From Acidobacteriota bacterium (GTDB lineage Bacteria > Acidobacteriota > JAQAZP01), in NCBI GenBank assembly GCA_032127265.1, contig JAQAZP010000049.1:1-61824 (forward strand): a stretch of 61,824 nucleotides of DNA, in the 5' to 3' direction. The notes below the pieces were generated by a model. That model searched no databases. It had not been told where the DNA came from and saw only the letters and a list, made by a program, of their open reading frames with translations. A program made the position numbers and the translations under genes. Shown here one piece after another: positions 11,050 to 47,721 of the stretch (the first letter of the stretch is position 1; every line of letters starts with the position of its first letter).

Positions 11050-11535
11050 ATGAATGACACTCACTACTGGCGGATGAAATCCATATCGGTGCTGGAGTCC
11101 GAGATCGACGACATGACCGGCGAACTGCTGGGCCACGTCCTGGAAGAGGGGCTGCGCCTCGGCGCCCTGGACGTTCACTACACCCCGGTGCAGATGAAGA
11201 AGAATCGCCCCGGTGTCCGTCTCACCCTGCTCTGCCGGGATTCCGACCAGGATCAATTCATCGACTTCATCTTCCGGCAGACCACCAGCCTCGGGGTTCG
11301 CGTCCGCTCGGTCCAGCGGGCCGAACTGGAACGTGATACGGTCACCGTCCAGCGAGACGGCCGCCGGTTTTCCGTCAAACGGGGCCTGGGCCCCGGTGGC
11401 GAGGTGCTCAACGAGGCCCCGGAATTCGAGGACCTGAGAACGCTGGCCCGGAACGATGGCGGACCGTTGAAAAGACTGTTTCAAAAGTGGTACGGCCGCA
11501 AGGCTGCCGGGGAGGAGGCGCGGAAAGATGAGTGA
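11050..11535 (+). CDS. larC2: LarC-family nickel insertion protein, C-terminal half only (LarC2-like)
   Basis: VLESEIDDMTGELLG, GALDVHYTPVQMKKNRPG, QTTSLGVR and PEFEDL motifs of the LarC C-terminal domain. The start may be 11074. Confidence 0.75.
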   Translation: MNDTHYWRMKSISVLESEIDDMTGELLGHVLEEGLRLGALDVHYTPVQMKKNRPGVRLTLLCRDSDQDQFIDFIFRQTTSLGVRVRSVQRAELERDTVTVQRDGRRFSVKRGLGPGGEVLNEAPEFEDLRTLARNDGGPLKRLFQKWYGRKAAGEEARKDE

Positions 11536-16595: not shown

Positions 16596-18401
16596 TCAAT
16601 CGCTGTGGTCTAGTTCAGCCTGCAGCAGCTGCAGGCGATACATCTCCGCGTAGATCCCGCCCCGTTCCATCAGCTGATCGTGTGACCCGCTCTCCTCGAT
16701 CCCGCCGTCCACCAGGACCACGATCCGGTCCGCGTCCTTGATGGTCGAAAGCCGCTGGGCGATGATCAGCGTGGTACGCCCCTTCATGAAGCCCCGCAGT
16801 TGCTGCAGGATCTGCTCCTCGGTATAGGTATCCACCGCGGAAAGGGCATCGTCGAGAATCAGGACCGAGGGGTCTAGCAGCACCGCCCGGGCCACCGCCA
16901 CCCGCTGTTTCTGGCCGCCCGAAAGCATCACTCCCCGCTCGCCCACCAATGTGTCATAGCCTTCGGGGAACCCTTCAACGTCCGCCGATATTTGCGAGAT
17001 CTCCGCCGCCCGCTTCACCGCCTCGAAGCTGCTCTCCGGTGCACCATAAGCGATGTTGGCCCGAATGGTGTCGGAGAAGAGGAAGGAATCCTGGGGCACG
17101 TGCCCCACGGCTCCGCGCAGGGCGGCCAGCGGGTACTCGGCCAGCGGGCGGCCGTCCAGCAGCAGCGTGCCCTCCGGCGCTTCAAACATCCGGGGGATCA
17201 GGTTGGCCAGGGTGCTCTTGCCGCTGCCCACCGGCCCCACCACCCCCACCGTGCTCCCCGCCGGTATGCGGAGATCAATGCCCTGCAGCACCGCTTTCCC
17301 GTTGTATGCGAAGTTGAGCCCACGGAACTCGATCTCCCCCCGCAGCGGGGCATCCGGGGGCCGGACCGCCCCCTCTCCCCCGCTGGCCTGGGGTTCGCTC
17401 TCCAGGATGGCGTTGATCCGTTCCATGGAGGCCTTGCCCTGCTGGTGCAGGCTGACCACCCAGCCCAGCGATACCATGGGCCAGACCAGGATACCGAGGA
17501 TTACGTTGAAAGCGATGAAGTCGCCATAGCCCAGCGACCCGGCCAGAATCCGTCGGCCCCCGTCCCAGAGCACCACCAGGTGCGACCCCACCACCAGCGA
17601 GAATAGCAGCGGCATGAACAGACTCTGGATCCTGGCCAGGGACATGTTCACATCCATATTGCGGCGGATCAGATCGCGAAACCGTTCGATCTCCGAATCC
17701 TCCCGGCAGTATGATTTCACCACGCGTATCCCGGAGAGATTTTCCTGAACCCGCTCGCTGACCATGGAGAAATGCCGCTGCACACGTTCCGAGCGGCGGT
17801 GAATTTCCCGGCTCAGAATCCGGGTAGTCACCGCGATGAGGATCAGCGGGACAAAGGTGTAGAGGGTGAGTTGCGGGCTCACCGTGATCATGAACGAGAC
17901 GGCGATGACAAAGGTCACCAGGGTGCTGGTGAGATACATGTACCCCGGCCCCATCAGCATCCGCACGGCATTGATATCGTTGGTCATCCGGGCCATCAGG
18001 TCGCCGGTCTTCGCCGTCTGGTACCAGGCGGCGGGGAGCCGCTGCAGGTGGGCGAAAATCTCGTTGCGCAGGTCGCGTTCGAACCGCCGGGAAGCCCCGG
18101 TGATGGTGTAGCGCATCAGGAAGCGGAACACCCCCTGGACCAGGGTGACGGCCACGATGGCCGCAGCATAGATGGCCAGGACACGGGACAGGGAACCGGC
18201 GGCGCCGATGAAATCGATCAGCAGGTCGAAGGGGAACGGGTGCATCCCCCCCTCGCCCAGTGCATCCACGGCGTATTTGATGATCAGCGGAACCGTGGGG
18301 TAGAGCGCGCTGGTCAGGACCACGAAGACAAGACCACTGAGAATACTCTTGCGGTAGGCCGGATAGTATTTTTTCAGCCTGGCGAACGGCGACCGGTTCA
18401 T
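16596..18401 (-). CDS. ABC exporter fused permease/ATPase, heterodimer subunit (YheI/BmrC-like)
   Basis: TM domain, GPVGSGKS, LSGGQ, degenerate Walker B ILDDA and switch IAQR. Start set at MNRSPF after a GGAG RBS. Confidence 0.92.
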   Translation of the reverse strand: MNRSPFARLKKYYPAYRKSILSGLVFVVLTSALYPTVPLIIKYAVDALGEGGMHPFPFDLLIDFIGAAGSLSRVLAIYAAAIVAVTLVQGVFRFLMRYTITGASRRFERDLRNEIFAHLQRLPAAWYQTAKTGDLMARMTNDINAVRMLMGPGYMYLTSTLVTFVIAVSFMITVSPQLTLYTFVPLILIAVTTRILSREIHRRSERVQRHFSMVSERVQENLSGIRVVKSYCREDSEIERFRDLIRRNMDVNMSLARIQSLFMPLLFSLVVGSHLVVLWDGGRRILAGSLGYGDFIAFNVILGILVWPMVSLGWVVSLHQQGKASMERINAILESEPQASGGEGAVRPPDAPLRGEIEFRGLNFAYNGKAVLQGIDLRIPAGSTVGVVGPVGSGKSTLANLIPRMFEAPEGTLLLDGRPLAEYPLAALRGAVGHVPQDSFLFSDTIRANIAYGAPESSFEAVKRAAEISQISADVEGFPEGYDTLVGERGVMLSGGQKQRVAVARAVLLDPSVLILDDALSAVDTYTEEQILQQLRGFMKGRTTLIIAQRLSTIKDADRIVVLVDGGIEESGSHDQLMERGGIYAEMYRLQLLQAELDHSD

Positions 18402-18685
18402 CTGCTCTCCCACCCCTGCCCTGCTCCGCGGCGGAGCCCTGGAAACGATCAGAGAGTATACCTCAACACCGTCTCCCTCTGTCATTTCCGGCAGATGATG
18501 CTCCCTCGACTTCGCTGAAAATGGGAGGACCCATTTTCTCTTATGCTCCGCTGAGGGAACATCATCTGCCGGCTTTGGCAGTTGCAGACCAGCTGATTCC
18601 CGTCCAGTTTGAATCACGGACTTCGTGAGGACCGGATGGCCGATCCTGGTTCACTCGCGCGTCAAATAGTCTATAATTGGCCGCC

Positions 18686-19871
18686 ATGACCGACCACCAT
18701 GCCAATCTGAATCGCAAGGAAACCGGCAAACAGCAGACTGTCCGGGCGGTGGTGGTGGGCGCCGGCCCGGCAGGAGCCCGGGCGGCTTTCCGGCTGGCCG
18801 AGGCCGGCTGGCCGGTGGTGCTGCTCGATCACCGCTACCCCTGGGAGAAACCGTGCGGCGGCGGCCTCAACCAGCGGGCACTGGCGCTGATGCGTCAGAC
18901 GCTGCCCGCAGTCCCCCACGCACCGGCCGGCCGGAGTCTGTACCTGGCCTCCGCGAGGGGCACCCGGTTGCGGATGGACCTGGATACCTCCTTTGCGGTC
19001 ATGCCCCGGATACATATGCAGCGGCTGATGGTGGAGCGGGCCATGGAGGCCGGCGTGACACTGGTCACCAGCAAGTTCAGCGGCGCCCGCCGTGCGGAGG
19101 TCCGCGGTTCCTGGGTGGTGGAGACCCGCGATGGAAGCCGGTTCGAAGCGCAGCAGTTGATTGGCGCCGACGGCGCTCTGAGCGCGGTCCGTCAGGCGGT
19201 GGCCGGGCCCGATGCCTGGCGCGACGTGCGGCCGGCCCTGGGCATGGTCCATGTCTTCTCCGGCCCGCCCCCCCGGGCAGACGGCCTGCACCTGGTCTTC
19301 ACCGACGATCCGCCCGGGTATATCTGGGAGTTTCCCGGCGATGGGTTCTCCACCGTAGGGATCTCGCTGCCCTTTGACCCGCACGGCGCGGCACAGGCCA
19401 GGGAACTCCTCCGCACGCACCTGGAACGGAGAGGCTGGGCCGGCCGGCCGCCGTTGCGCGGAGCCATGGCGCCCTCGGCCAGTGCGGCCCACTGGCAGCG
19501 GGGGATGGTCCAGGGCGACGGATGGGCCCTGCTGGGTGATGCCGCCGGACTGGTGGACCCGCTGACCGGGGAAGGTATCTACTATGCCCTCCGCTCGGCC
19601 GACCTGCTGGCCGAGGCCCTGCTGGCCGGTGAACCTGAGCGATACACGGAGGCGGTGCGTGGAGAACTGGGTCCGGAACTGGCCCTGGCCGCCAGATACG
19701 TCAAGAGCTTTTTCCGGGGCGGCTTTCCGGAGCAGATGCTGGCCCTGGCCGGCAGACACCAGGGAATTCGCACCGTTCTGGGCAACCTGGTGTCCGGACG
19801 GCAATCCTACCTGGGCCTGAAGAGGGTCTTGTTCCGCAGCTGCATTCCCGCGGCCCTGCGCTACCTGCTGC

Positions 19872-19894
<23 letters not shown>
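18686..19894 (+). CDS. Geranylgeranyl reductase-family FAD-dependent oxidoreductase
   Basis: VVGAGPAG, EKPCGGG, IGADG and LLGDAAGLVDPLTGEGIYYA motifs. Confidence 0.88.
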
Positions 19895-21236
<1,342 letters not shown>

Positions 21237-37300: not shown

Positions 37301-37951
37301 TACGACATCGGCTACGGCGGTCTGGACCACGTCCTGGCCTGCAACCGCGACGTCAACCTCCTGGTGCTGGATACCGAGGTGTACTCCAATACCGGCGGTC
37401 AGGCATCCAAGGCCACACCCATCGGGGCGATGGCCAAGTTCGCCATGGGCGGCAAGGCCATTGCCAAGAAAGACCTTGGCATGATGGCCATGAGCTACGG
37501 TTACGTCTACGTGGCCCAGGTGGCCATGGGAGCCAGGGATGCCCAGACAGTGAAGGCCTTCCTCGAGGCCGAATCCTATGACGGGCCCTCGCTGATCATT
37601 GCCTACTCCCACTGCATCGCCCACGGCTTCAACCTGTCCGACGGTCTCGAGCAGCAGAGGCTGGCGGTGGAAACCGGGTACTGGCCGCTCTACCGCTTCG
37701 ACCCCCGCCGGGCAGCCCTGGGTGAAAACCCGCTGCAGCTGGATTCCAAGGCGCCGAAGGGAAAATTCGAGTCCTATGCGCTCAACGAAACCCGCTACCG
37801 CATGCTGCAGAAAATCAACCCCGAGCGGGCAAGAATGCTGCTGGACCACGCCCAGGTAACCGTGGATGCCCGATTCAGAAAATATGAACAGATGGCCGGG
37901 ATGGATTTCTCGAAGTCCACCGAGGGTACATCCGGGGACGGAGACGCGTAA
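34364..37951 (+). CDS. nifJ: Pyruvate:ferredoxin (flavodoxin) oxidoreductase
   Basis: AIYPITPSS, QSEGGA, two CxxCxxCxxxCP ferredoxin motifs, GACAGCGE, and the TPP motif GGDGWAYDIG..YSNTGGQ. Confidence 0.97.
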   Translation: MARRKITIDGNEATASVAHRINEVIAIYPITPSSNMGEWADEWAAKGMKNIWGNVPQVVEMQSEGGASAAVHGSLQAGALTTTFTASQGLLLMIPTMFKIAGELTSTVFHISARTIATHALSIFGDHSDVYSVRQTGWGMLSSGSVQEAHDMAAIATMCTLESRIPFLHFFDGFRTSHEVSKIEELTDDDLRTLMDAGMIRMHKERALSPERPKIRGTSQNPDVFFQARETITPYYEACPGIMQEMMDRFAELTGRQYQLFDYVGHPDAERVIVVMGSAADTVHETVEYLNNQGEKLGVLKVRLFRPFAPHQMLAALPESVKAIAVLDRAKEPGSSGEALYTDMLTALAEGRTEGYSQFDTDPKVIGGRYGLSSKEFTPVMVKAVFDELTNDPPKNHFTVGINDDVSNSSLTMDPSFDTESDNVTRGVFFGLGSDGTVGANKNSIKIIGEETDNYAQGYFVYDSKKAGAVTVSHLRFGPDPIRSIYLIKKANFVACHQVVFLERYDMLAYAQPGAVFLLNSQAKLEDVWDTLPREDQQSIIDKKIRFYAIDAYQVARETGMGVRINTIMQTCFFAISGVLPRDEAIAQIKKAIKKTYGNKGEEIVKLNYNAVDQTLAHLHEVQVPGVVTSTMTRPPTVSPEAPEFVQNVTAEIIAGRGDDLPVSAFPADGTWPVSTTQWEKRNIALEIPVWEQDICIQCNKCAMVCPHAAIRPKVYDLQHLEGAPTTFKSVDYKGREFPGTKYTLQVAPEDCTGCELCVRACPAKDKENPERLAINMTPQPPLRETERENYEFFLNIPDPDRTKVKTDTKGTQFFRPLFEYSGACAGCGETPYVKLLTQLFGDRAIIGNATGCSSIYGGNLPTTPYTVNADGRGPSWSNSLFEDTAEFTYGFRLAVDQNRVVAENLLKELSPKIGQILVDEILTADQAGEKAIADQRSRVSALREQLKGFDDPAAEQLAQLAEYLERKSIWGVGGDGWAYDIGYGGLDHVLACNRDVNLLVLDTEVYSNTGGQASKATPIGAMAKFAMGGKAIAKKDLGMMAMSYGYVYVAQVAMGARDAQTVKAFLEAESYDGPSLIIAYSHCIAHGFNLSDGLEQQRLAVETGYWPLYRFDPRRAALGENPLQLDSKAPKGKFESYALNETRYRMLQKINPERARMLLDHAQVTVDARFRKYEQMAGMDFSKSTEGTSGDGDA

Positions 37952-37971
37952 CATCCGGAAGTGATTATGTG

Positions 37972-38015
37972 AAAAGGCCGCGGTCCGGTTCGCCGGCAAC
38001 CGCGGCCTTTTTTTT
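37972..38015. terminator. Bidirectional rho-independent terminator between nifJ and the convergent peptide-modification operon
   Basis: AAAAGGCCGCGGT/ACCGCGGCCTTTT stem, with T8 on plus and A4 on the other side. Confidence 0.85.
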
Positions 38016-38070
38016 GAAGCGGCAACAAGCAACAAGATGCTGCCTGACTCCAACACTATGCGCACTTGTT

Positions 38071-38637
38071 TCAGTGGTGCCGAAGTATCAGTCGGATCAG
38101 GGGGGCCATCAGGCTCCGTTTCAGCCGATGGGCCATGTGGCCCGGTTTGCGCGGGTTGGCGTCCCGGAAGCCGTTACCGTCCCTGCGGCCCCCGCCCGCC
38201 AGCAGCACCCGCCACTTCCCCAGCCGTCCGGCAAGCGGGTTGACCCAGGTCCAGGGCCGGCGGGAGAGGTGGAGGCTGCGCTCCGGACCGTCGATGGCGG
38301 CCACCCGACCGAGCACCGTGTCGGGAAGGACCCAGGACCAGGCAGGGGAGTTATCCCCCATCTGGCAATACCAGCGGCGGCCGTCACCAGCCGTCCGTGC
38401 CATCAGGAACCGGTGAACCACCACCGTCTCACCCTGCTGCAGGGCAAGGATGTCACCGCAGCAGAGATCCCCGGGGGAGAGCGGATTGATGGTGACCCGG
38501 TGGCCCGGCAGCGCCACCGGATCCATACTGCGCCCCTCCAGCCGGAGGGTGAACTCCCGCTGGCCGTCCCGCCAGAGTTTCAGCACGGCGCTCTTCAGCG
38601 GCGGCCGCAACTCGCGGTTCGCATCATTCTCCCCCAC
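38071..38637 (-). CDS. S24/S26-family (signal-peptidase-like) peptidase without a membrane anchor
   Basis: GRSMDP (catalytic Ser), GDIL, VVHR and MGDN motifs of the Ser-His-type S26 fold. Confidence 0.8.
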   Translation of the reverse strand: MGENDANRELRPPLKSAVLKLWRDGQREFTLRLEGRSMDPVALPGHRVTINPLSPGDLCCGDILALQQGETVVVHRFLMARTAGDGRRWYCQMGDNSPAWSWVLPDTVLGRVAAIDGPERSLHLSRRPWTWVNPLAGRLGKWRVLLAGGGRRDGNGFRDANPRKPGHMAHRLKRSLMAPLIRLILRHH

Positions 38638-38641
38638 CCGT

Positions 38642-41410
38642 TCACTCCCACGATTTCAGCCGAGAGGCCGGGTCCCCCAAAAGGGTGAACATGGAGACCA
38701 TCCCGTTGGTGGCGCCCAGGGCATGGGCCGCCAGCTTGGCCTCGGTGCTGATGACACCCAGGCGGTCCTCCCCCTGAACAAAGATCTGCGAGAAGATTTG
38801 CGGAGACAGCATGTCCTGCTCCCAGGTGTAGCTCAGCCCGCTGGGCGAGAAGCACCCCAGAGCACCGCCAAATTCCGCCGATGCCAGTTCCTCGGCCAGG
38901 CAGTAGTAGAACGGCTGTGAGAAGTAGCCGTTGAGGCAGGTCATGGTGAGCACGAAGGTCAGGGCATCGTCGTTGGTCAGCGAGGCCACGTCGGCGGTCT
39001 GGAAGAGGCCCTCGCCGGCCCAGGAGGTCACTGACCCGTGCCCGTTGTAATGGACAATCATCTCACCGCGGTTGATCGCCCGAACGATGTCCGCGGTGGC
39101 CTCCGCGGTCACCGGGTAAGCGGAAAGGTAGACCCGGTCCGGCTGGATGCCCGGGGGCAGCATGGCGGCCACCGTCTCGTTCAGGTTTTCGAAGACCTGT
39201 TCATTGTCGGCGACAAAAAGTGACCGGCCCGGCGCCGCAGCCGGAGACTGCTCGTGGGCCAGCAGCCGGGTCACCACCCGGTCCGCCATCACCGCGTCAC
39301 TGGCCGGCAGGCGGCCGATATACATCTCGGGCAGCACATCGTCGCCTTCCACGGTGACATACCAGTTGTCGTCCGGTGTAAGGCCAATTTCGCTCAGCGT
39401 CAGGTGTACGGGCACCAGGCTCTGTTTGCCGGTGCCGAAGTAGTCGAGGTAATCGGTGTTGGCATCGCCGAGCAGCAGGATGAAGGCGGGCGCCGGCGGC
39501 GCCCAGTCATGATAGGCACAACGAAGAAACGCCTTCAGCGCCACCGGGTCCGGCAGGCCATGGTTGAACTCATTGTAGATGTCCTCCACCGCCACCGCCA
39601 TGGACCGAAGCCCCTGGTCCCGTCGATACTGGACAAGGGGTTCGGCTGCCGGGAGAAACTCCCGAGGCGTGATCAGGATGTAGTCGGCGCCCTGCCCGCC
39701 CCCCCTCAACCCCGGCGAGGCCCAGCCCTCCACCGCGGACGGATCCCTGAACCGGTCGGGGGTCAGCGCGAAGTATGTGGCGGCACCCGCCACCTTGTCA
39801 CCAAAGGTCGCGGTGTATTGCCCTCCCACCTCGGTGACCCTGACATGGAGCACCCGTTTGACGTCAAAGGGATCGCTGACATCAAGGACGGCCACCAGCG
39901 GTTCGGTGAAGCCATGTACCGCCATGTGCAGCGGCCCTTTTCCCTGGACGGTGAAGCAGAGCTGGTCATCCAGCGCACGAAGCTGTCGGCGGTATTCCAG
40001 TTCGATCCAGTTGAGGTAGATGCTGTCCACCGCCGCGCCGGTGTCGCCAGGGCAATCCACGGTAACCGTGTTCCCCCCAATGGTCAACAGCCCGGTCGGG
40101 ACCTGGAGCTCCTGGGAAACGACCTTGTCGCCGTCCCAGTACTGGTCGCCCACGTCCACACCGTTCAAAAATATCCGGGTGTGGTGATTGGGGTGCGGTG
40201 ACGCGGTTGAGCGGCCCTGGTAGCAGACCCGGAGGGTGCTGTCCCACGCGCCGGGATCAGGATTGTGGATGTCCACCTGGCAATTCTTCACCACCGGTGC
40301 GGTGAGCAGGTCCCAGAACCAGAAGTCCGCTTCCGGAGTCCCCGGTGTGGCCTCCCACAACCGGTGGTTCTCCTCGTAGCGCACGGTTTCCGTTGTTGAG
40401 GTGACCAGAGCGCCCCCACCGGAGGAGCGGCCGTCCCGGGTCCCCATCCTGGCCCCGGCCTCCCCGCCCCAGTACAGCCAGTAGACATTGGCCCCGGTAA
40501 ACCGGCTCTCCACGCCCTGGCCGTAGAAGAAGAGATCCCCCCCGGGCCACGGCGCTTCATGATGGTCATCAGCGACAAAGATCGGCACTTCGCGCCCCTT
40601 GTTGAACAGCTTCAGCGTGGCCGGGTCCAGGGCCTCGATCAGGCCGTGGGCCAGACCGGCGCCCAGCAGGGCCTGACCGTAGTCCATGGCGTAGAGGCCG
40701 TCCTCCTCCACCTCGATGCGCAACGCCCCCTGGAGACAGGAGCCCGGGGTGGGGAGCAGCAGGCCGTGATACGCATCCCGGGAATCGGGATCGGGGGAGG
40801 ATGCCGGGTCTGTTGGCAGAACGAAGCTGGATGGTTGATGATACGAGAGCCGGACCACCAGCCGTGAAGCACAGCGCAGCTGCCCGGACGACGGGTCCCA
40901 CTGGAACGGATGAAAGAGCACCCGGGCCAGGTGGCGGCCGCGCTGAACAGCCGCCGGTTGCACCTCAACCAGTGCCGCGGGATAGATCTGGTCAAGCTGT
41001 CCTGCCTGCTGTTCCTCGAACTCCGGGACGGCGGCCCGATCGGCGTCCTCCACCGTCAGACGCGGAACCGGATAGACGTGCTGGACAGCGTGATGCCGGA
41101 ATTCAGCGTCGAGGATCCGGACGTCCATACCGCCGCCCGGCGGGAGCCCGATGGCGCATCCCAGCACCGGAAGTTCGGGCAGCCCGGCAATGGCCGTCCG
41201 GGCCCAACCGTCCAGCAGCACCCGCTGGCATGGGCCCTGGAGCCCCTGGATTTCTTCGAGCCGGTATGACGGCAGCAGCAGTTCCAGGGTGACGCCCCAC
41301 TGATCCTGCTCCAGAACGGTGAGACCGGGAGGGACGAGGATCGCCGGGTTTACGGTCTGAGCCGAAACCGGAACCGTGATCAGCAGCAGCAACAGCCAGG
41401 TGATTTTCAA
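38642..41410 (-). CDS. Secreted C25 (gingipain/PorU-like) cysteine peptidase with propeptide
   Basis: Signal peptide (VSA-Q), propeptide-like GLPELP, DYILIT, IYNEF, LLLGDA, DNWY, IGRLP, catalytic HYNGHG and TMTC, terminal LLGDP. Confidence 0.88.
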   Translation of the reverse strand: MKITWLLLLLITVPVSAQTVNPAILVPPGLTVLEQDQWGVTLELLLPSYRLEEIQGLQGPCQRVLLDGWARTAIAGLPELPVLGCAIGLPPGGGMDVRILDAEFRHHAVQHVYPVPRLTVEDADRAAVPEFEEQQAGQLDQIYPAALVEVQPAAVQRGRHLARVLFHPFQWDPSSGQLRCASRLVVRLSYHQPSSFVLPTDPASSPDPDSRDAYHGLLLPTPGSCLQGALRIEVEEDGLYAMDYGQALLGAGLAHGLIEALDPATLKLFNKGREVPIFVADDHHEAPWPGGDLFFYGQGVESRFTGANVYWLYWGGEAGARMGTRDGRSSGGGALVTSTTETVRYEENHRLWEATPGTPEADFWFWDLLTAPVVKNCQVDIHNPDPGAWDSTLRVCYQGRSTASPHPNHHTRIFLNGVDVGDQYWDGDKVVSQELQVPTGLLTIGGNTVTVDCPGDTGAAVDSIYLNWIELEYRRQLRALDDQLCFTVQGKGPLHMAVHGFTEPLVAVLDVSDPFDVKRVLHVRVTEVGGQYTATFGDKVAGAATYFALTPDRFRDPSAVEGWASPGLRGGGQGADYILITPREFLPAAEPLVQYRRDQGLRSMAVAVEDIYNEFNHGLPDPVALKAFLRCAYHDWAPPAPAFILLLGDANTDYLDYFGTGKQSLVPVHLTLSEIGLTPDDNWYVTVEGDDVLPEMYIGRLPASDAVMADRVVTRLLAHEQSPAAAPGRSLFVADNEQVFENLNETVAAMLPPGIQPDRVYLSAYPVTAEATADIVRAINRGEMIVHYNGHGSVTSWAGEGLFQTADVASLTNDDALTFVLTMTCLNGYFSQPFYYCLAEELASAEFGGALGCFSPSGLSYTWEQDMLSPQIFSQIFVQGEDRLGVISTEAKLAAHALGATNGMVSMFTLLGDPASRLKSWE

Positions 41411-42552
41411 TTCCCTGTCTCCGCTTCCCCGGTGGCCTCAAGGGCCAGTTTCCTGACCATCGGCACCTCCTCATCAAGACGGCCAACCGTGAGCCTGAAG
41501 CAGGCCGCCTTTGAAAAATGTTCGATCAATTCCTTCAGCAGGCCGGCCGATCCGGCATCCACGCCCTGGCCCGGCGAATCGACCCGCTGTTTCAGCCCGG
41601 GCAGCAGGCCGAATGCCGCCCGGTGGGCCGGCACCGGCTCCAGCACCGGCGCACGCTGGAAATCGGGCCGGGCGGTCTCGGTCACAAAGTTATTGAGCAA
41701 GCAGTCCCGGTGCGTCTCCAGCAGGCCGGCGAGGGCCGCGGCCAGTCCATTCCCTCGTGGATAATCAAGGTGGAACTCGGCCACCCCCGCCTTGGGCCGG
41801 GTCACCACGATTCCGGGGTGCAGCCGGGTCACGTCATCGAGCAGCGGTTCCCAGCCCCGCTCCCGGGTCCCCACAACCAGCCGGCCCACGACTCCGGCCG
41901 TCGGCCCCGGATCGAGAATGACCAGCAAACCGGGCTCCGACGTCTCCTCCCACTTTTTCGTATCGGCAAGTGACGAGGGGTTCATTGGTCTTTTCCCGCC
42001 CTTCATCACGCCCTGGCCGCCCCCGGCCCCCGCCCCTCCCTCCTCGTCAATCACCCAGAGGCTGCGGGGAAAGGGATGAACCCGGCCGCTCCGGCGGTGG
42101 ATGGGGCAGATCTCGTCGGAGAAGAGCGTGAATCCGCTCCCGGCAAGGGCCAGGGCCAGGGTGGTTTTCCCGGTCCCCGGCGGTCCGGCCAGAATCACCG
42201 CCCGCCGGTTGCGCACCACAACCGCCGCGTGCAGCAGCAGGTAGCCCTGGAGGCTGTCGAACAGCGTCTGGGTCACCCACTGCCAGGCATGATGGACCGG
42301 AGTGGGATGCCCGTCGAGGGACTGTTCCCCCACCTGGTCACCGGCGCCGACGGTCCGGCGGAAGTTGAGGCTCGGCCCCCCCGGCCCGTTGAAGCGGGCC
42401 TTGATGCTGAGGTCAGCCTCACCACCAGCGTCCGCTGTGCGGAACAAGGCGTAGTCACGGTCGAACAGCTCCAGCAGCTGCTCCGAATCACTGGCCAGGC
42501 AGAGCGCCGTGTCGAGAATGCGGTAATGGGCCTGGTGCAGCGCCGGGCTCAT
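41407..42552 (-). CDS. HPr kinase-related P-loop protein
   Basis: LLHAAVV..AVILAGPPGTGKTT..LFSDE..PFPR signature of HprK-related kinases. Confidence 0.8.
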   Translation of the reverse strand: MSPALHQAHYRILDTALCLASDSEQLLELFDRDYALFRTADAGGEADLSIKARFNGPGGPSLNFRRTVGAGDQVGEQSLDGHPTPVHHAWQWVTQTLFDSLQGYLLLHAAVVVRNRRAVILAGPPGTGKTTLALALAGSGFTLFSDEICPIHRRSGRVHPFPRSLWVIDEEGGAGAGGGQGVMKGGKRPMNPSSLADTKKWEETSEPGLLVILDPGPTAGVVGRLVVGTRERGWEPLLDDVTRLHPGIVVTRPKAGVAEFHLDYPRGNGLAAALAGLLETHRDCLLNNFVTETARPDFQRAPVLEPVPAHRAAFGLLPGLKQRVDSPGQGVDAGSAGLLKELIEHFSKAACFRLTVGRLDEEVPMVRKLALEATGEAETGN

Positions 42553-43946
42553 GGCGCCCCCCTTCCCGTAGAATGGCTGCAGATTGTTTCACGTCTCAGG
42601 ATGCCGTCGAACGCCTCCTGGTAGGCTTCGCGGCGATAGGAGCAGAAATCGTCCCGGCCCCAGATGGTTCCGCGATGATCCAGGGCCTGGCCCATGCAGC
42701 CGGCCTGGCAGAGGTTTCGCCAGTGGCAGGCGGCGCACTCGGGGATCTGTTGGCGCCGATCGCTCAGCGCCGCGCAGGCCCGGGCCAGGCCGCGGTGATC
42801 CAGACAAGCCTGCAGTCCGTCGTGAAACAGGTTGCCCAACCGGAACTCCTCGTGCATCAGCAGGACACAGGGGTATGCCGAACCGTCCACATCGGCCACC
42901 ATGGTCCGGCCCACGGAACACCAGATCCCATCGGGGGCGATGTCCGGGGGGACTTCCATCAAGAAGCCGCTGAGGCCGCAACTCACGCTCACCGAGCAGC
43001 TTCCGCCGCGCTGCTCGCCGGTCACCAGCCGGTAGAACTCCTCGTGGTCCCGGACCGACACACCGGCGCCGATGCGGTCCCAGTTTCCGGCGGCCCGCCC
43101 CCGGCGGGCCAGGGGCAGAAAGCGCACCAGGGGCACCCCCCGCTGCTCGGCCAGCCTGATGATCCCCGACAACTGATGCAGGTTCTGCTCCATGATGGTC
43201 GCCGAAAAGTTTACCCGCTCCCCCATACCGGCCTGCTGGAGCAGTTCAACGGCCCCCATGGCCGCGGCAAAGCTTCCCGCCTTCCGTATCCCGTCGTGGG
43301 TCGCTTCGTCGGCCCCGTCCACACTGACCTGGACCAGCGCGCCGGTCCCGGAGAGGAACCCGGCCCACCGCTCATCGACCAGCGAGCCGTTGGTCAGCAG
43401 GCGGACACGCACCTTCAGGGCCGCGTGGCTGATCAGATCCCGGGCCCGGGGATGGAGCAGGGGCTCTCCCCCGCTGATGGTCACACCCCGGGCACCGGCC
43501 GCCGCCGCCTCGTCGATCAGCCGGCAGGCCGCCTCCAGGGGCATGTCCGACGCTTCACGCTCTTCGGCCTGGTAGCAGTGGACACAGCGGTAGTTGCAGC
43601 GGTCGGTGATGTGCAGAAAGAGCGACTCCGCCACCGGCGTCCTCCGCGCCGGCCCCTCGGCCCGGGGCGCCAGATACCCACGGCTCTCCAACTCGTCGGC
43701 CACCCGGTCCACATCGCCCCTTGCTTCGATCCGGCCGAGGCCATACCGCTCGGCCAGAGCGTCGGCCGCTTCCCCGCGTCCCGATCCATCGAGCAGCAGA
43801 GTGGCGATTTCGCGGGTGGTGCTGTTGACCACAAGCCAGCGGGGATCATGGCCATGGAGCATGACCACTGGCCCGGAGCCGTCAGGCGGAGGTGTGTCGG
43901 GATAGAAGAACCAGGAGGGACACGATGCTGGGGATTGTCTGCCCAA
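42549..43946 (-). CDS. Radical SAM/SPASM enzyme with an N-terminal PqqD-like RRE
   Basis: RRE-like VNSTTREIA.LL..LAERY..DV..L.SRGYL, CNYRCVHC, SGGEP, and SPASM WC..GSAYPC plus CAAC..CQAGC..C. Confidence 0.92.
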   Translation of the reverse strand: MGRQSPASCPSWFFYPDTPPPDGSGPVVMLHGHDPRWLVVNSTTREIATLLLDGSGRGEAADALAERYGLGRIEARGDVDRVADELESRGYLAPRAEGPARRTPVAESLFLHITDRCNYRCVHCYQAEEREASDMPLEAACRLIDEAAAAGARGVTISGGEPLLHPRARDLISHAALKVRVRLLTNGSLVDERWAGFLSGTGALVQVSVDGADEATHDGIRKAGSFAAAMGAVELLQQAGMGERVNFSATIMEQNLHQLSGIIRLAEQRGVPLVRFLPLARRGRAAGNWDRIGAGVSVRDHEEFYRLVTGEQRGGSCSVSVSCGLSGFLMEVPPDIAPDGIWCSVGRTMVADVDGSAYPCVLLMHEEFRLGNLFHDGLQACLDHRGLARACAALSDRRQQIPECAACHWRNLCQAGCMGQALDHRGTIWGRDDFCSYRREAYQEAFDGILRRETICSHSTGRGAP

Positions 43947-43998
43947 GAGAGATACTACCGTGCTCGGGATTTCGATGGACCGCCCCGGACACCGCGTA

Positions 43999-44172
43999 TC
44001 AAACGATACCGCAGGGAGCGGGACTGCAAGCCTGCGCGGGCCCGACCTGTTCCAGGATTTCCTCGCTGCTGTAGGTTGTGATCAAGGGTGGTTCGTACTG
44101 AACCCGGATTGCGGCGCTGCCCTTGTGGCCCTTGTCCTCCGTTTTCCGGAGTTCCGTTCTCTCCTCGATCAT
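43999..44172 (-). CDS. Putative RiPP precursor peptide (57 aa)
   Basis: GGAG-containing RBS before ATG 44172. Sequence MIEERTELRKTEDKGHKGSAAIRVQYEPPLITTYSSEEILEQVGPAQACSPAPCGIV. First gene after the promoter, ending 52 nt upstream of the rSAM gene. Confidence 0.8.
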   Translation of the reverse strand: MIEERTELRKTEDKGHKGSAAIRVQYEPPLITTYSSEEILEQVGPAQACSPAPCGIV

Positions 44173-44315
44173 CCCTTTCTCCCCTGACGGTCCCCAAGCC
44201 TTGAAGGACCGGGTTGCGGTTGTCCGGGGCAACGCCCCGTCACCATGCCGGAAATCGGCATAGGGCGACCGTATTTCATACACTATCTTATCGGCAGAAT
44301 CATGTGCTGACTGAA

Positions 44316-44344
44316 AATGTACCAACAACCGGCAGGACTGTCAA
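44316..44344 (-). promoter_or_regulatory. Sigma70 promoter of the peptide-modification operon
   Basis: Minus strand TTGACA-17 nt-TACATT with a TGn extension, just downstream of the mdh terminator. Confidence 0.7.
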
Positions 44345-44359
44345 CAACATCGCCCCAAT

Positions 44360-44388
44360 AAAAAGCCCCCGCCGTGAGGCGGGGGCTT
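44360..44388 (-). terminator. Rho-independent terminator of mdh
   Basis: AAGCCCCCGCC-GTGA-GGCGGGGGCTT stem with A5 on plus (U-tract on minus). Confidence 0.88.
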
Positions 44389-44419
44389 GAACAATCAACC
44401 GGTTGCAGCGAGCAGGCTG

Positions 44420-45376
44420 CTACTTGCCCATGGCATCCACTTCGCCGCAGGTCTTTTTCACCGCGTCCACCGAGTGGGCCAGTGCGGCCTTCTCATCGGC
44501 GGTCAGCTTGATCTCGATGATCTTTTCCACGCCGTTCTTGCCGAGAATGGCGGGGACGCCGACGAAGAGCCCATCGACGCCATACTCGCCCTCGAGCAGC
44601 GCGCAGACCGGGACGATCTTCTTCTTGTCGAACATGATCGCCTCGACCATCTCCAGCGCCGACCAGGCCGGGCTGACAAAGGCGGAACCGGAACCGAGCA
44701 GACCCACCACCTCGCCGCCGGCCTTGCGGGTCCGGGTTTCGATCGCTTCCAGCGCCTCGGGCGCGACGAACTCTTCAACCGGAAGGCCGTAGACCCGGCA
44801 GGCGCTGCGGATCGGCACCATGGTGTCGCCGTGGCCGCCCAGCACCACCGCCTCGACGTTTTCCACCGAGACGCCGGCGGCCTCGGCTACGAAATACTTG
44901 TAACGGCCCGAGTCGAGCACACCGGCCATACCGATGATCTTGTTCTTCGGGGTGCCCAGCTGCTTGTACAGACGGTAGACGATGGCGTCCAGGGGGTTGG
45001 CCACGGAGATGATGATGGCCTTGGGGCAGTACTTTTTGATCCCCTCGGCCACCTTGTCGGTGATGCCGAGGTTGATCGCCAGCAGCTCTTCGCGGCTGGG
45101 GAAGGTGCCGTCGGGCCGCACGGTGCGCGGCACGCCCGCGGTGTTGATCACGAAGTCGGACCCTTCGAGAACCTCGAAGGTCTGGCTGGCCTGGAAGTTG
45201 ACGTCACGACTGATGGTCGGCATCCCCTCGGCGATGTCGAGGCACTTGCCCTTTGCCAGGTTCGGGGGCTTGGGATCCACCAGGCCAACGTTGCGCGCGA
45301 GGCCGCGCGAGACGATTTCCGATACCAGGACGCCGCCGATCTGGCCGCCGCCCACGAGTCCGATCTTGTTGACCAT
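44420..45376 (-). CDS. mdh: LDH-like malate dehydrogenase (mobile-loop insertion; substrate unverified)
   Basis: GGGQIG, TAGVPR, ANPLDA, GMAGVLDSGR, GGHGDTMVP and GGEVV..GSA. AAGGAG RBS. Confidence 0.82.
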   Translation of the reverse strand: MVNKIGLVGGGQIGGVLVSEIVSRGLARNVGLVDPKPPNLAKGKCLDIAEGMPTISRDVNFQASQTFEVLEGSDFVINTAGVPRTVRPDGTFPSREELLAINLGITDKVAEGIKKYCPKAIIISVANPLDAIVYRLYKQLGTPKNKIIGMAGVLDSGRYKYFVAEAAGVSVENVEAVVLGGHGDTMVPIRSACRVYGLPVEEFVAPEALEAIETRTRKAGGEVVGLLGSGSAFVSPAWSALEMVEAIMFDKKKIVPVCALLEGEYGVDGLFVGVPAILGKNGVEKIIEIKLTADEKAALAHSVDAVKKTCGEVDAMGK

Positions 45377-45629
45377 CGACATTCTCCTTGCTGTGATAAT
45401 ACCTTCCGCTCGGGACCACAACAGGCGGACAAAGGGTTTTGCCCACCAGTCTCTCCAAAAATATTCGCCGATATTACCACCATGGGACAGGTTAGGCCAG
45501 TGTATTTACCGTTGCTGGTCCGATTAGGCCTTTTTTTTCTCCAGGGGCCCTTTGCCGCCCCGGTTGACCGGTGGTCCGGACCGTGTTTCAATGGGTAAAA
45601 GGCTCTTTTCACAACCGGGGGAGGGACTG

Positions 45630-46328
45630 ATGGATACCATCGACATACACTACCGTTTCAACCTCGGTGGCGGGGCCCTGGAGGTCTTCGACCTCAAGTT
45701 CCGCCCGCAGGACATGGAATTGCTGGAACCCGTACCGAAAACCGTTCCGTCCTGGGCCGGCCTCGAGTTCCACCAGTGCCCGCACTGCCCGCTGACCCGG
45801 TCGGAGCAGCCGCACTGCCCGCTGGCCGTCCGGCTGGTGGACGTGATTCAGCGGTTCGACCACATCATTTCCTTTGACACCATTCGCCTGGACGTCACCA
45901 CCAGGGAACGGTTCATCTCCCAGGACACCACGGCCCAGCGGGGTGTCAGTTCACTGCTCGGCCTGCTCATCGCCACGTCTGGCTGCCCGCATACCCGTTT
46001 TCTCCGCCCCATGGCCCGTCACCACCTGCCCTTTGCCAGCTACGAGGAGACTCTCTACCGGGCGGCCTCCACCTATGCCCTGGCCCAGTATTTCAGGACC
46101 AGGGCGGGCCTCGACCCGGACACCGGGATGGAGGGCCTGCTCGGTCTCTATGAATCGGTCTGCCGGATCAATCTCTCGGTGGTGCAGCGGGTGCGCGAGG
46201 CCACCCAGGCCGACTCGGCGGTCAACGCCCTGGTGATCCTGGACCTCTTTGCCCAGATGCTGCCGGAGAGCATGGAAGAGGAATTGGAAAAGCTGCAGGG
46301 CCTGTTTGCGGCCTACGTTGAAGCCTGA
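45630..46328 (+). CDS. Conserved hypothetical protein (DUF6901-like, Cys motifs)
   Basis: GGAGG RBS; LEFHQCPHCPL..CP, SGCP..L.PMAR.HLPFA..ET.YR and NALVILD pattern. Confidence 0.65.
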   Translation: MDTIDIHYRFNLGGGALEVFDLKFRPQDMELLEPVPKTVPSWAGLEFHQCPHCPLTRSEQPHCPLAVRLVDVIQRFDHIISFDTIRLDVTTRERFISQDTTAQRGVSSLLGLLIATSGCPHTRFLRPMARHHLPFASYEETLYRAASTYALAQYFRTRAGLDPDTGMEGLLGLYESVCRINLSVVQRVREATQADSAVNALVILDLFAQMLPESMEEELEKLQGLFAAYVEA

Positions 46329-46337
46329 CCCGTACGA

Positions 46338-46787
46338 TCAGTCCCCCAGGTCCACCACGATCCGGTCATTGTCGAGCGAGGCGGGCCAGGTGCGCAGAGG
46401 ATGGGTGGCCGGGCCGTTGAGCACGTTCCCGTCCACGTCGAAAAACGATCCATGGCAGGGGCATTCGAACCGTTTCACGGCCCTGCGGTAGGCCACGGTG
46501 CATTTCTCGTGACTGCAGATGGGGCTGACCGCGCTGACACCCTGTTCCGAGTGACGGGCCAGGAGCACTTCCCTGCCCTTCAACCGAATGGTGATCGACC
46601 CGCCCACCCGCTGGAGCTTCTTGACCCGGTCCAGCGGGATGGCCACCTTGCCGGCCAGGGCTGTCCGCCCCGGCCAGAGGAAGAGCATCCCCGTCAGCAT
46701 CGGCAGCAGCCTCTTGAAGAATCCCCGTCGGGAGAATGAAGACCGGCAGTCACTCATCGGTTCAGGTCGCCGCCTCCGCTCATTCAC
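46338..46787 (-). CDS. Tat-exported Rieske [2Fe-2S] protein
   Basis: SRRGFF twin-arginine signal; CSHEKC and CPCHGS Rieske boxes; GPA..PL. Confidence 0.92.
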   Translation of the reverse strand: MNERRRRPEPMSDCRSSFSRRGFFKRLLPMLTGMLFLWPGRTALAGKVAIPLDRVKKLQRVGGSITIRLKGREVLLARHSEQGVSAVSPICSHEKCTVAYRRAVKRFECPCHGSFFDVDGNVLNGPATHPLRTWPASLDNDRIVVDLGD

Positions 46788-47721
46788 CCGGCCGCCAGAA
46801 ACGGAATTCCCTGGTGATGGTGAACCCGAGGATCAGGTCACCATAGTCGCGGAAAGTATTGGTGGCGATTCCGGCGGCCCCGAAATATTGTGTGTTGGAG
46901 ACCACCAGGGCAAAGGTGTGCTTGTTGGTGGTGGCCCGAAGGGAAGTCGAGAGCACCGGGTAGCGCTCCTTGAACCCGCCGACGTTGGCCACGATTTCGC
47001 CGTGCCAGGAGAAACCGGGGGTGAAACGGATGTCCAGGGTCCCCGGAACGGCCATCGAGTAGTCCTGGTCGCCGCGGTCCCTGTTCTCGTTGTAGGAATC
47101 GGAGTGGTAGAGCAGGCCGGTGCCCACCCTGACCCGCCGGCCGAAGGTGCGGTTGATCGCCAGTTGACCGAAGTAGCCCTCCCTGTCATCGGCGTCCTTG
47201 ACCGAGAACCAGGTCACCCCGCCGCGCACCGAGACGTCGAGGAGGTGTTTGTCCTGTTTCAACGCATGGTATTTGAGATCGAGATCCCAGGTGTCGGTCT
47301 TGAACCTGTCCGCCGTACCGTTGATCCGTTGCAGACCCACGTCGAGGCCATCGAAAATGCCGTAACGGGCGGCAAGGCCGATCTTCAGCTGGCCGTTGTC
47401 AAAGCCGAGGAAGTTGTGGAACGGTTCCTCGGTGAACGTCTTCCAGGTCCGGTGGTCGAGGACGAAAATAAGCGCCCCCCGCCGGGTGGTGCGGGCCTCA
47501 AGCACGTTGATCGTCCGCTCGCTGCGCGCCCTGCCCTCGTCGTCCCAGGTGTCGAGGCCGTCAACCTCCTCGATAATATCGATTTCCTCTATCTCATCCA
47601 CTGCCTCTTCGGCAGACACCTGGCCATCCTCCCCGGCAGCGGCATAGATCTGGCCAGTTGACAAAACTGCGGCAAACCCGAACAGCAGGCCAAACAAGAA
47701 GACCTTCCGGAGTTGTCTCAT
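46780..47721 (-). CDS. Outer membrane beta-barrel protein (DUF5777-like)
   Basis: Signal peptide; F.LDHR, FLGFD, HTFALVVSNT and terminal LGFTITREF pattern. AAGGAGG RBS. Confidence 0.7.
   Translation of the reverse strand: MRQLRKVFLFGLLFGFAAVLSTGQIYAAAGEDGQVSAEEAVDEIEEIDIIEEVDGLDTWDDEGRARSERTINVLEARTTRRGALIFVLDHRTWKTFTEEPFHNFLGFDNGQLKIGLAARYGIFDGLDVGLQRINGTADRFKTDTWDLDLKYHALKQDKHLLDVSVRGGVTWFSVKDADDREGYFGQLAINRTFGRRVRVGTGLLYHSDSYNENRDRGDQDYSMAVPGTLDIRFTPGFSWHGEIVANVGGFKERYPVLSTSLRATTNKHTFALVVSNTQYFGAAGIATNTFRDYGDLILGFTITREFRFWRPGE

Follow-up and report, generated by a model that had tools for sequence, protein, structure and literature searches.

The window analysed here is a stretch of 61,824 nucleotides from an Acidobacteriota bacterium (assembly GCA_032127265.1, contig JAQAZP010000049.1), and corresponds to contig C49 of a 5.2-Mb assembly in 384 contigs, 91% complete. 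On its minus strand, between positions 38071 and 44344, five genes follow a promoter-like site; they encode a small precursor peptide, a radical S-adenosylmethionine (rSAM) enzyme, a kinase-like protein and two peptidases, and constitute one copy of a widespread, undescribed multi-gene system. In the direction of transcription, the first gene encodes the precursor (43999-44172, 57 residues). Its open reading frame (ORF), listed as 43999-44328, extends upstream to a TTG codon at 44328; the ATG at 44172, immediately preceded by the purine-rich GGGGAGAAAGGG, is the likely start. It is followed by the genes for an rSAM/SPASM enzyme with an N-terminal PqqD-type recognition element (RRE) for RiPPs, peptides made by the ribosome and modified after translation (42549-43946, 465 residues; an alternative start at about 43862 gives the 437-residue form found in the database), for a HprK/PEPCK-fold P-loop kinase-like protein (41407-42552, 381 residues), for an exported PorU-like cysteine peptidase of family C25 (38642-41410, 922 residues, TTG start) and for a Sec11/SipW-type (S26B-like) serine peptidase, the candidate leader peptidase (38071-38637, 188 residues, GTG start).

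An earlier reading of the window from its letters alone, here called the original prediction, had described five co-oriented, tightly coupled genes without a dedicated transporter, and the ORF coordinates agree: the rSAM and kinase genes overlap by 4 nt (42549-42552), as do the kinase and C25 genes (41407-41410), 4 nt (38638-38641) separate the C25 from the S24/S26-like gene, and no transporter gene is found inside the block. The near-consensus sigma-70 promoter proposed at 44316-44344 was recovered as well, as a match to the consensus: TTGACA and TACATT, spaced by 17 nt, with a TG-extended -10 element and 10 of 12 consensus positions. Three promoter-like sites were counted in the 6.8-kb region, against 0.6 +/- 0.8 in shuffled sequences, and a hairpin terminator belonging to the upstream gene lies at 44388-44363. 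At the other end, where the block meets a convergent plus-strand gene, a GC-rich hairpin is found between an A-run and a T-run at about 37975-38015 (AAAAGGCCGCGG..CCGCGGCCTTTTTTTT). It had been taken for a bidirectional terminator, which holds for the plus strand, where it is strong; the minus strand keeps only 4 T. An Rfam search of positions 37800-44600 gave no match.

Domain searches returned the labels given to the gene products at the outset (PqqD, SPASM, C25, HprK-related and S24/S26), the S24/S26 match being weak. In the rSAM enzyme, Pfam matches above cut-off were found for PqqD (PF05402; residues 27-92, 29.7 bits, cut-off 23.4), Radical_SAM (PF04055; residues 113-265, 84.8 bits) and SPASM (PF13186; residues 346-408, 23.2 bits, cut-off 21.5). 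Thirty aligned sequences of the family all keep the CxxxCxxC motif (C89, C93, C96) and seven C-terminal cysteines; two more cysteines are nearly invariant. The enzyme, with its CxxxCxxC motif, full SPASM cysteine set, PqqD-like element and adjacent precursor gene, has the general features of RRE-dependent rSAM/SPASM RiPP maturases, and the assignment of an RRE and a SPASM domain stands.

Membership in any known maturase family could not be established, as no NCBIfam cut-off was reached. The best match was MftC (TIGR03962; 126.8 bits, cut-off 265), lower scores being given by ScmE (96.6 bits), ScmF (88.7) and GeoRSP_rSAM (88.6), each with a cut-off of 400, while StsB and DynA scored about 90-97 bits, far under their cut-offs, and the anaerobic sulfatase-maturing enzyme (anSME, TIGR03942) 91.3 bits (cut-off 349). 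The mycofactocin precursor ends in G-V-Y, and the precursors of the family described here have varied ends. The anSME substrate motif is C/S-x-P-x-R; the C-x-P-x-P found in 64 of 85 precursor cores is a resemblance only. When the rSAM profile was compared with solved structures, anSME 4k37 was the best match (E 1.6e-33), followed by SkfB, CteB (aligned over residues 24-424, including the RRE) and PqqE. The enzyme shares with the known SPASM maturases the two cysteine sets and, with CteB, the N-terminal RRE, but differs from all of them in its scores and in a substrate motif, C-S-P-x-P-C, that matches none of the known ones. The family is sharply bounded: 96 other clusters at 90% identity were found at E<=5e-71, the next match being at 2e-26. 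Its named sources are Thermodesulfobacteriota, Desulfobacteraceae, Candidatus Magnetomorum, Magnetoglobus, Acidobacteriota, Terriglobales and Anaerolineae.

The kinase-like protein gave its best NCBIfam match with HprK_rel_A (69.9 bits, cut-off 200), aligned only over residues 82-164, and lower scores with HprK_rel_B (31.2 bits, cut-off 200) and ScmC (22.5 bits, cut-off 125). Three motifs are invariant in the family alignment (A3), the P-loop G-x4-G-K-[TS]-T, S-D-[DE] and H-P-F-P-R. The protein matches HPrK/P (1ko7, E 2.4e-5), and its predicted structure (mean predicted local distance difference test, pLDDT, 79.7) retrieves as top PDB folds only phosphoenolpyruvate carboxykinases, and then HPrK/P. 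Walker A loop, aspartate pair and modelled fold all point to a P-loop kinase of the HPrK/PEPCK fold.

Cassettes named and scored in the library searches have overlapping parts: HPr-rel-A, GeoRSP and SynChlorMet, which are defined by bioinformatics only, include an HprK-related protein, a PqqD-type chaperone, an rSAM/SPASM maturase and a small precursor. The original prediction had mentioned overlaps of this kind with the SynChlorMet and HPr-rel cassettes. No gene of the block scores as high as the curated threshold of a named cassette requires, whether for SynChlorMet (ScmC, ScmE and ScmF), GeoRSP (GeoRSP_rSAM and HprK_rel_B) or HPr-rel-A (HprK_rel_A). Unlike in those cassettes, PqqD is here fused to the rSAM enzyme, and the set adds a PorU-like C25 peptidase, a Sec11-like peptidase and secreted proteins with a shared C-terminal domain, which are described below.

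The leader motif recognized by the lasso peptide RRE is Y-x-x-P-x-L, and in both lasso tailoring modules (PadeK, ThcoK, SyanK or PsmK, with PsmN and a B1 RRE) and the present block an HPrK-family kinase is encoded beside a precursor with a leader of this type. According to PMC9266682, the HPr-kinase homologues of lasso clusters phosphorylate precursor peptides, a nucleotidyltransferase-like partner builds on the phosphate, the kinases share His-Lys-Asp-Asp as conserved residues, the substrate precursor ends in Ser, and lasso B2 and C genes are present in the cluster. The His-Lys-Asp-Asp set, as given there, is matched in alignment A3 by H (8 of 9 sequences), K, D and D/E, and NTP_transf_5-type partners resembling PsmN occur in five relatives of the block (L009, L010, L126, L234 and L235). 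The differences are the absence of lasso cyclase and B2 protease domains from the five genes, the presence of an rSAM enzyme, and a precursor core that does not end in Ser. The 52 distinct cores of the family end mostly in Q, P, N or V, and a few do end in S, as in five precursors with C-S-P-S-P-C-P-T-Y-S; membership among the PadeK-type kinases was rejected.

The C25 protein has a hydrophobic N-terminus, as read from its translation, followed by Propeptide_C25 (45.2 bits) and Peptidase_C25 (269.7 bits, cut-off 23) matches. All 12 orthologues compared keep His791 and Cys825, as expected for family C25. The protein had been described as gingipain-like, and this has to be revised, since it is closer to PorU: residues 275-919 align with the PorU model NF033707 at 222.1 bits, and the closest solved structure is PorU 6za2 (E 1e-15), gingipains coming after (1e-9). 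The score stays under the NF033707 cut-off of 420, and the protein was not assigned to the PorU sortases of type IX secretion systems (T9SS). About 14 Peptidase_C25 proteins of 700-1350 residues are encoded in the same genome, and only that of the window adjoins rSAM and kinase genes; these paralogues are 21-32% identical to it over partial alignments, the orthologues from elsewhere 33-42% over the full length.

The last gene does encode a peptidase, as predicted, and the general label S24/S26 can be narrowed to a Sec11/SipW-like enzyme. The boxes G-x-S-M-x-P, V-H-R and G-D-N are invariant in eight sequences, except in L010 (16475-17044), where the nucleophile box reads G-R-C-M-I-P and Cys replaces the catalytic Ser. 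The family profile matches SEC11C (E 3e-10) and SEC11A (E 2e-9), and LexA only at 0.5. No Pfam match was obtained, and the archaeal-type signal peptidase model sigpep_I_arch (TIGR02228) gave 23.7 bits, under its cut-off of 51.85. About 36 polar residues and no hydrophobic segment precede the Ser box; with the boxes in place but the N-terminal anchor missing, the protein was not classed as a full S26B signal peptidase, and it is probably cytoplasmic or peripheral. In other respects it resembles SipW, as sipW is encoded with tasA and the block peptidase beside its presumed substrate, whose junction fits the rule of small residues at -3 and -1 followed by signal peptidases. It differs from Sec11 and SipW, besides the missing anchor and the Cys nucleophile in L010, by being fused to NTP_transf_5 in two genomes (G116 and G387).

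The window precursor consists of a leader of about 48 residues containing Y-E-P-P-L-I-T-T-Y, the junction G-P-A-Q-A and a 9-residue core, C-S-P-A-P-C-G-I-V. The anatomy of the family is constant: Y-x-x-P-x-[ILV]-x-x-[YF], an acidic stretch with [IV]-[LIV], G-P-A-x-[AT], then Cys. No Pfam or NCBIfam family matches it. In 104 loci, a DNA pattern derived for the precursor picked out all known copies and gave no other match. In metagenome contigs at least 120 stretches were matched; the counts given here rest on 80 loci with 82 listed matches, all of which are short ORFs of the precursor family. From these loci and nine genome loci, 85 distinct Cys-type precursors were collected, with 52 distinct cores of median length 10. 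At core position +2, 72 of the precursors have S, 5 have T and 6 have A (83 of 85 in all), and 69 have P at +3; 76 contain a second Cys, which in 64 comes four residues later. The junction residues seen are A, V, I and G at -3 and A, T, G and C at -1. Comparison of the precursor profile with 1.84 billion representative sequences gave 570 matching clusters at E<=1e-3, of which 92 remained at E<=1e-10. One long match, P0126 (7727 residues), aligns in 59 stretches with profile positions 13-35, which belong to the leader; repeated units resembling the leader, or an artefact of composition, may account for this.

In order to follow the gene set beyond the window, rSAM orthologues (E<=1e-60) were sought in a sample of 401 genomes of the same phylum, and found in 8, including the genome of the window. 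Nine loci were compared with the block, namely those of the phylum sample and two from another collection, L009 (a metagenome-assembled Acidobacteriota genome) and L010, which were the true orthologues among the matches listed by a scan of genome contigs with the rSAM alignment; the matches were mostly generic rSAM enzymes. The genes for rSAM enzyme, HprK-like protein and C25 peptidase occur in the same order in 9 of 9 loci. The precursor lies directly 5' of them in 8 of 9 (in L100 it is missing and tadA abuts the rSAM gene), and the S24-like gene follows C25 in 6 of 9, being absent from L009 and L100, while the sequence of L099 stops inside C25. In some metagenome loci the order is shuffled and the set kept. 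The five genes are a conserved set, and, as the original prediction had asked of them, rSAM homologues keep their partners and an upstream peptide. The remaining flanks are unrelated between loci; the only further components added are the genes for the secreted proteins and NTP_transf_5 genes, which adjoin the set in L009 and L010.

Some of these loci show peculiarities of their own. In L010, an extra small radical SAM gene (11403-12308) lies between the rSAM/SPASM and kinase genes, an ABC-2-type transporter pair (18307-20119) is found just past the set on the opposite strand, and the separate S24-like and NTP_transf_5 genes overlap by 4 nt. In L097, from a genome of the same genus (G026), the HprK-like gene matches in two pieces (8183-9323), which points to a frameshift or an assembly error, and a second, orphan copy of the precursor with the same core is found on another contig of that genome (L229:1372-1599). 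In L009 (11577-14625), L101 (4210-6219) and L103 (2038-4170) the set adjoins nucleotide-sugar or polysaccharide genes (UDP-glucose dehydrogenase-like; RmlA- and RmlC-like, as read from translations; Polysacc_synt_2).

The precursor is not confined to the neighbourhood of the rSAM enzyme. Among the listed metagenomic precursors with at least 1.5 kb of sequence downstream, only 15 of 41 are followed by an rSAM gene; many others are flanked, before or after and at a spacing of about 30 nt, by genes for secreted proteins. These have a signal peptide, unrelated passengers (multiheme-cytochrome-like, beta-helix, FG-GAP, LamG and formylglycine-generating enzyme (FGE)-like) and a conserved C-terminal domain (CTD) of about 100 residues. 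A CTD gene is adjacent to 49 of the 82 listed precursors; its end falls within 800 nt upstream in 28 of the 56 having at least 800 nt of upstream sequence, and when both flanks are informative either an rSAM or a CTD gene is adjacent in 25 of 28. Tandem arrays of cargo and peptide genes are found in L153 and L168. The passengers at L125:5263-6282, L160:8505-9221 and L168:6317-7597 include proteins with several CxxCH haem motifs joined through a Thr-rich linker, and one with an FGE-sulfatase domain, whose gene directly follows that of a C-S-P-S-P-C precursor.

The CTD matches no Pfam or NCBIfam family. Its model (pLDDT 88) resembles generic Fn3/Ig sandwiches only, 3mpc being the best match; a lead from the Atlas feature space to Por_Secre_tail (0.85) was too weak to use, and a complex prediction of CTD (A4) and precursor (A5) scored 0.00 and was used neither for nor against an interaction. 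The CTD profile matches 88 of the 401 phylum-sample genomes at E<=1e-8, a tally that includes one unpublished genome (G151) used for this purpose only, and matches all eight rSAM-positive genomes at E<=2e-26. CTD genes adjoin the block in L009, L098, L101, L102 and L103, and lie inside the operon, between kinase and C25, in L116 and L159. The complete set, with a CTD gene adjoining it, is present in the closed 4.5-Mb genome G138.

The components were further separated by genomes in which the rSAM enzyme is missing. A precursor pattern that does not require Cys, run on the 401 genomes, gave 15 matches in 10 of them (none in the reversed control). All three matches in rSAM-positive genomes have Cys at +1, and 11 of 12 in rSAM-negative genomes lack it, so that Cys cores go with the rSAM enzyme; since the cores of rSAM-less relatives have no Cys, this enzyme probably acts on the Cys of the core. 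The rSAM-less peptides keep the leader and G-P-A-Q-A, and their first core residue is Y, V, A or M, as in Y-T-G-N-F-P-F-G-F and its variants. Neither the rSAM enzyme nor the Cys-type pattern is present in ten genomes whose CTD matches are strong. Five of them were probed with the C25 peptidase of the window, and in four its homologues (E 1e-83 to 1e-112) were found beside CTD genes (G116, G387 and G263) or in the same ORF (G058); no C25-CTD adjacency was seen in G216. In G116 and G387 the order is cargo-CTD, peptide, [cargo-CTD], stand-alone PqqD (49.7 and 39.6 bits), [peptide], HprK-like protein, C25, and a single protein of about 640 residues in which the Sec11-like domain is fused to NTP_transf_5 (L234:12600-14507 and L235:2628-4559). 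G303 has CTD, peptide, HprK and C25 genes, and G263 two cargo-peptide pairs and a C25 gene, without HprK or S24 within 14 kb.

Natural fusions were found on both sides of the CTD. In G058, a genome without peptide pattern or rSAM enzyme, C25 directly follows a CTD-like domain in one giant ORF in five cases (L237, at G058:C23:57000-73000, and four more places; ORFs of 1569-3795 residues with a full C25 module). Three long matches of the precursor profile, P0202, P0228 and P0246, representing three distinct protein clusters, contain a signal peptide and passenger, the CTD (hhalign 99.8%, E 3e-30), a hydrophobic helix, a basic stretch, the leader, G-P-A-Q-A and, at the very C-terminus, the Cys core; this order equals the usual gene order of cargo then peptide. 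By genomic adjacency and by fusion, as read from the sequences, the peptide is tied to the CTD, the CTD to C25, the S24-like peptidase to NTP_transf_5 and the RRE to the rSAM enzyme. The original prediction of a self-contained pathway with a free modified peptide as its end product is not supported in that form by these results: peptide, PqqD, HprK, C25 and S24-like proteins persist without the rSAM enzyme, precursor genes stand beside or are fused to genes for secreted CTD proteins, and CTDs are adjacent or fused to C25.

The reading that we prefer, tentatively and with a probability of about 45%, is that the tailored peptide would be a partner in the handling of secreted CTD proteins rather than a free product of the antibiotic kind. 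By analogy with other PqqD-type RREs, the Y-x-x-P-x-[ILV] leader would be bound, in the cytoplasm, by the PqqD domain that the rSAM enzyme carries. This SPASM enzyme would act on the C-S-P-x-P-C core at its first Cys, forming a thioether or another cross-link, a common outcome of SPASM chemistry, or carrying out an anSME-like oxidation to formylglycine; the latter is a live alternative because the core C-x-P-x-P resembles the sulfatase formylglycine motif C-x-P-x-R. The anchor-less Sec11/SipW-type peptidase may cut after A-x-[AT] and so set free about 9-10 residues as the core, since the residues at -3 and -1 fit the signal-peptidase rule and since the precursors of a second locus of the same genome (C351, described below) have S-A-L-A, then Cys. 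The HprK/PEPCK-fold kinase may phosphorylate the peptide, as do the lasso HPr-kinase homologues of PMC9266682. Outside the cytoplasm, the PorU-like C25 peptidase would process the CTD proteins, and the matured peptide would be a partner in this step, most plausibly as the group onto which the cargo is transferred.

In its most specific version, the C25 enzyme would act as a transpeptidase, transferring the cargo, its CTD removed, onto the matured peptide as acceptor or anchor, a RiPP-dependent sorting outside Bacteroidota. Before this transfer, NTP_transf_5 would in relatives have built a phospho-linked group, and the Sec11-like cut would have exposed a new N-terminus; if so, the fusions and the cargo/peptide arrays would mean that cargo often brings its own anchor peptide. 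This version, taken by itself, looks quite unlikely. T9SS offers a close parallel, in that PorU acts there on CTD cargo: the exported C25 is closest to PorU, protease and cargo genes are adjacent, and varied secreted passengers share one C-terminal beta-sandwich of about 100 residues. On the other hand, T9SS has no ribosomal peptide, rSAM enzyme or kinase, and the CTD matches no Pfam or NCBIfam sorting domain. A canonical T9SS was rejected on the score of the PorU model, on the lack of a library sorting domain in the cargo, and on a search of the window's genome, where, at 91% completeness, no match was found to PorV or SprA_N; the SprA result is weak evidence, that search being positive in no control genome either.

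Several observations weigh against a role of the peptide in CTD protein handling. Each functional step, from chemistry and cleavage to export and binding, is deduced from sequence and context; lasso kinases act on substrates with a terminal Ser, and the core ends in another residue; no exporter is conserved with the gene set among the loci compared. No CTD gene lies beside the block in the window, and the three CTD proteins of this genome are encoded on other contigs, one of them at C27:46437-47840, none with a peptide. G402 has 33 CTD matches and 3 precursors by the strict pattern, which rules out a strict 1:1 stoichiometry of peptide and cargo as a general rule; CTD-like domains, with their generic Fn3/Ig fold, are far commoner than the peptide in the phylum sample. 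G050 has the rSAM, HprK and C25 genes, without a precursor by either pattern and without an S24-like gene nearby, and G216 has a Cys-type peptide but no rSAM match. The first pattern used on metagenomes required Cys, and A or T at -1, so that their invariance there is by design. Finally, the peptide of the fusions would be a cytoplasmic tail, while C25 is exported.

The alternative that best survives is a stand-alone RiPP, in which the rSAM enzyme and the kinase tailor the core, the S24/S26 peptidase, C25 or both remove the leader, and the free peptide (an antimicrobial, signal or metal binder) is the product, the neighbouring CTD proteins being merely co-regulated or co-inherited surface proteins. 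The full logic of RRE, rSAM enzyme and precursor is present and recurs, extracellular leader peptidases such as NisP serve other RiPPs, L097, L099, L100 and L010 resemble the window in having no CTD gene beside the block, and in G402 CTD genes far outnumber peptides. It is nonetheless somewhat unlikely, as it leaves aside the fusions of cargo, CTD, helix and precursor in three distinct protein clusters, the CTD neighbours of 49 of 82 listed precursors, the fusion or adjacency of CTD and C25 in genomes without any rSAM enzyme, the persistence of kinase, C25 and S24-like proteins where the rSAM enzyme is absent and the core has no Cys, and the lack of a transporter conserved with the set.

The same fusions, in which a membrane helix and a basic stretch precede the peptide, could also indicate that it is a cytoplasmic tail or signal of the cargo, fused or split, through which the making, export or release of cargo is reported or controlled; the action of the S26B-like peptidase, kinase and rSAM enzyme within the cell would be coupled to that of C25 outside, without covalent joining of peptide and cargo. 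This would agree with the maturases all being without signal peptides while C25 and cargo have them, and with the identity of gene order and fusion order. We find it decidedly doubtful, because only 3 fused clusters were seen in the 150 best matches, the split cargo ends in a short tail and not in a membrane helix, which leaves the free peptide without an obvious physical link, and no regulator is conserved in the set. It is very improbable that the matured peptide instead regulates or inhibits C25, a formylglycine aldehyde or a constrained C-S-P-x-P-C loop filling the active site until export: peptide aldehydes are classical inhibitors of cysteine proteases, the core resembles the sulfatase motif, anSME is the best structural match of the rSAM profile, and peptide and C25 always occur together in the set, but the NCBIfam anSME score is below that of MftC and far under its cut-off, rSAM-less relatives keep C25 with Cys-free cores, extra peptide copies pair with cargo and not with protease genes, and C25 already has its own Propeptide_C25.

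A second RiPP-like locus is present in the genome of the window, on contig C351 (L104:1-4487), with all NCBIfam scores under cut-off. It contains an ScmC-like fragment, a stand-alone PqqD gene (358-639), an rSAM/SPASM gene (782-1897), a Sec11-like peptidase gene (1951-2505) and three tandem Gly-rich precursors of about 88 residues (3407-3673, 3924-4190 and one ending at 3336). These precursors belong to a family unrelated to that of the window, and have the leader Y-x-K-P-x-I and the junction S-A-L-A, then C, beside the Sec11-like gene. As to the surroundings of the block itself, the labels mdh and nifJ of its flanks are read from translations only; a PFOR gene adjoins the block in the same-genus locus L097. 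Past the upstream dehydrogenase gene, the plus strand encodes a DUF6901 protein (45552-46328), and the minus strand a Rieske protein (46338-46787) and a DUF5777 beta-barrel (46780-47721).

No paper combining rSAM, HPr-kinase-like and C25 proteins was found in the literature search, which did not extend to supplements, where a network table could list the set; none was found naming the HPr-rel-A, GeoRSP or SynChlorMet systems, and the available text of PMC10288494 and PMC4289311 makes no mention of the gene set. The parts are of known kinds, and their combination and the link to secreted CTD proteins appear to be undescribed. Even on the conservative reading, the block represents an uncharacterised and readily assayed RiPP family with a predicted leader peptidase of the Sec11 type, which is unusual. 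If the links reported here hold, the system is a large one: its peptides form 570 representative clusters, and it was met in Thermodesulfobacteriota-like and Acidobacteriota lineages as well as in others that are uncultured. It would connect ribosomal-peptide tailoring enzymes to the PorU-type processing of surface or secreted proteins. The orphan HprK/PqqD/nucleotidyltransferase cassettes, so far entries of family libraries only, would gain a first functional context; C-S-P-x-P-C would be a new and directly testable rSAM substrate motif; and there would be a candidate signal, and a candidate enzyme, for the sorting of many extracellular proteins of anaerobes, multiheme-cytochrome-like ones among them.

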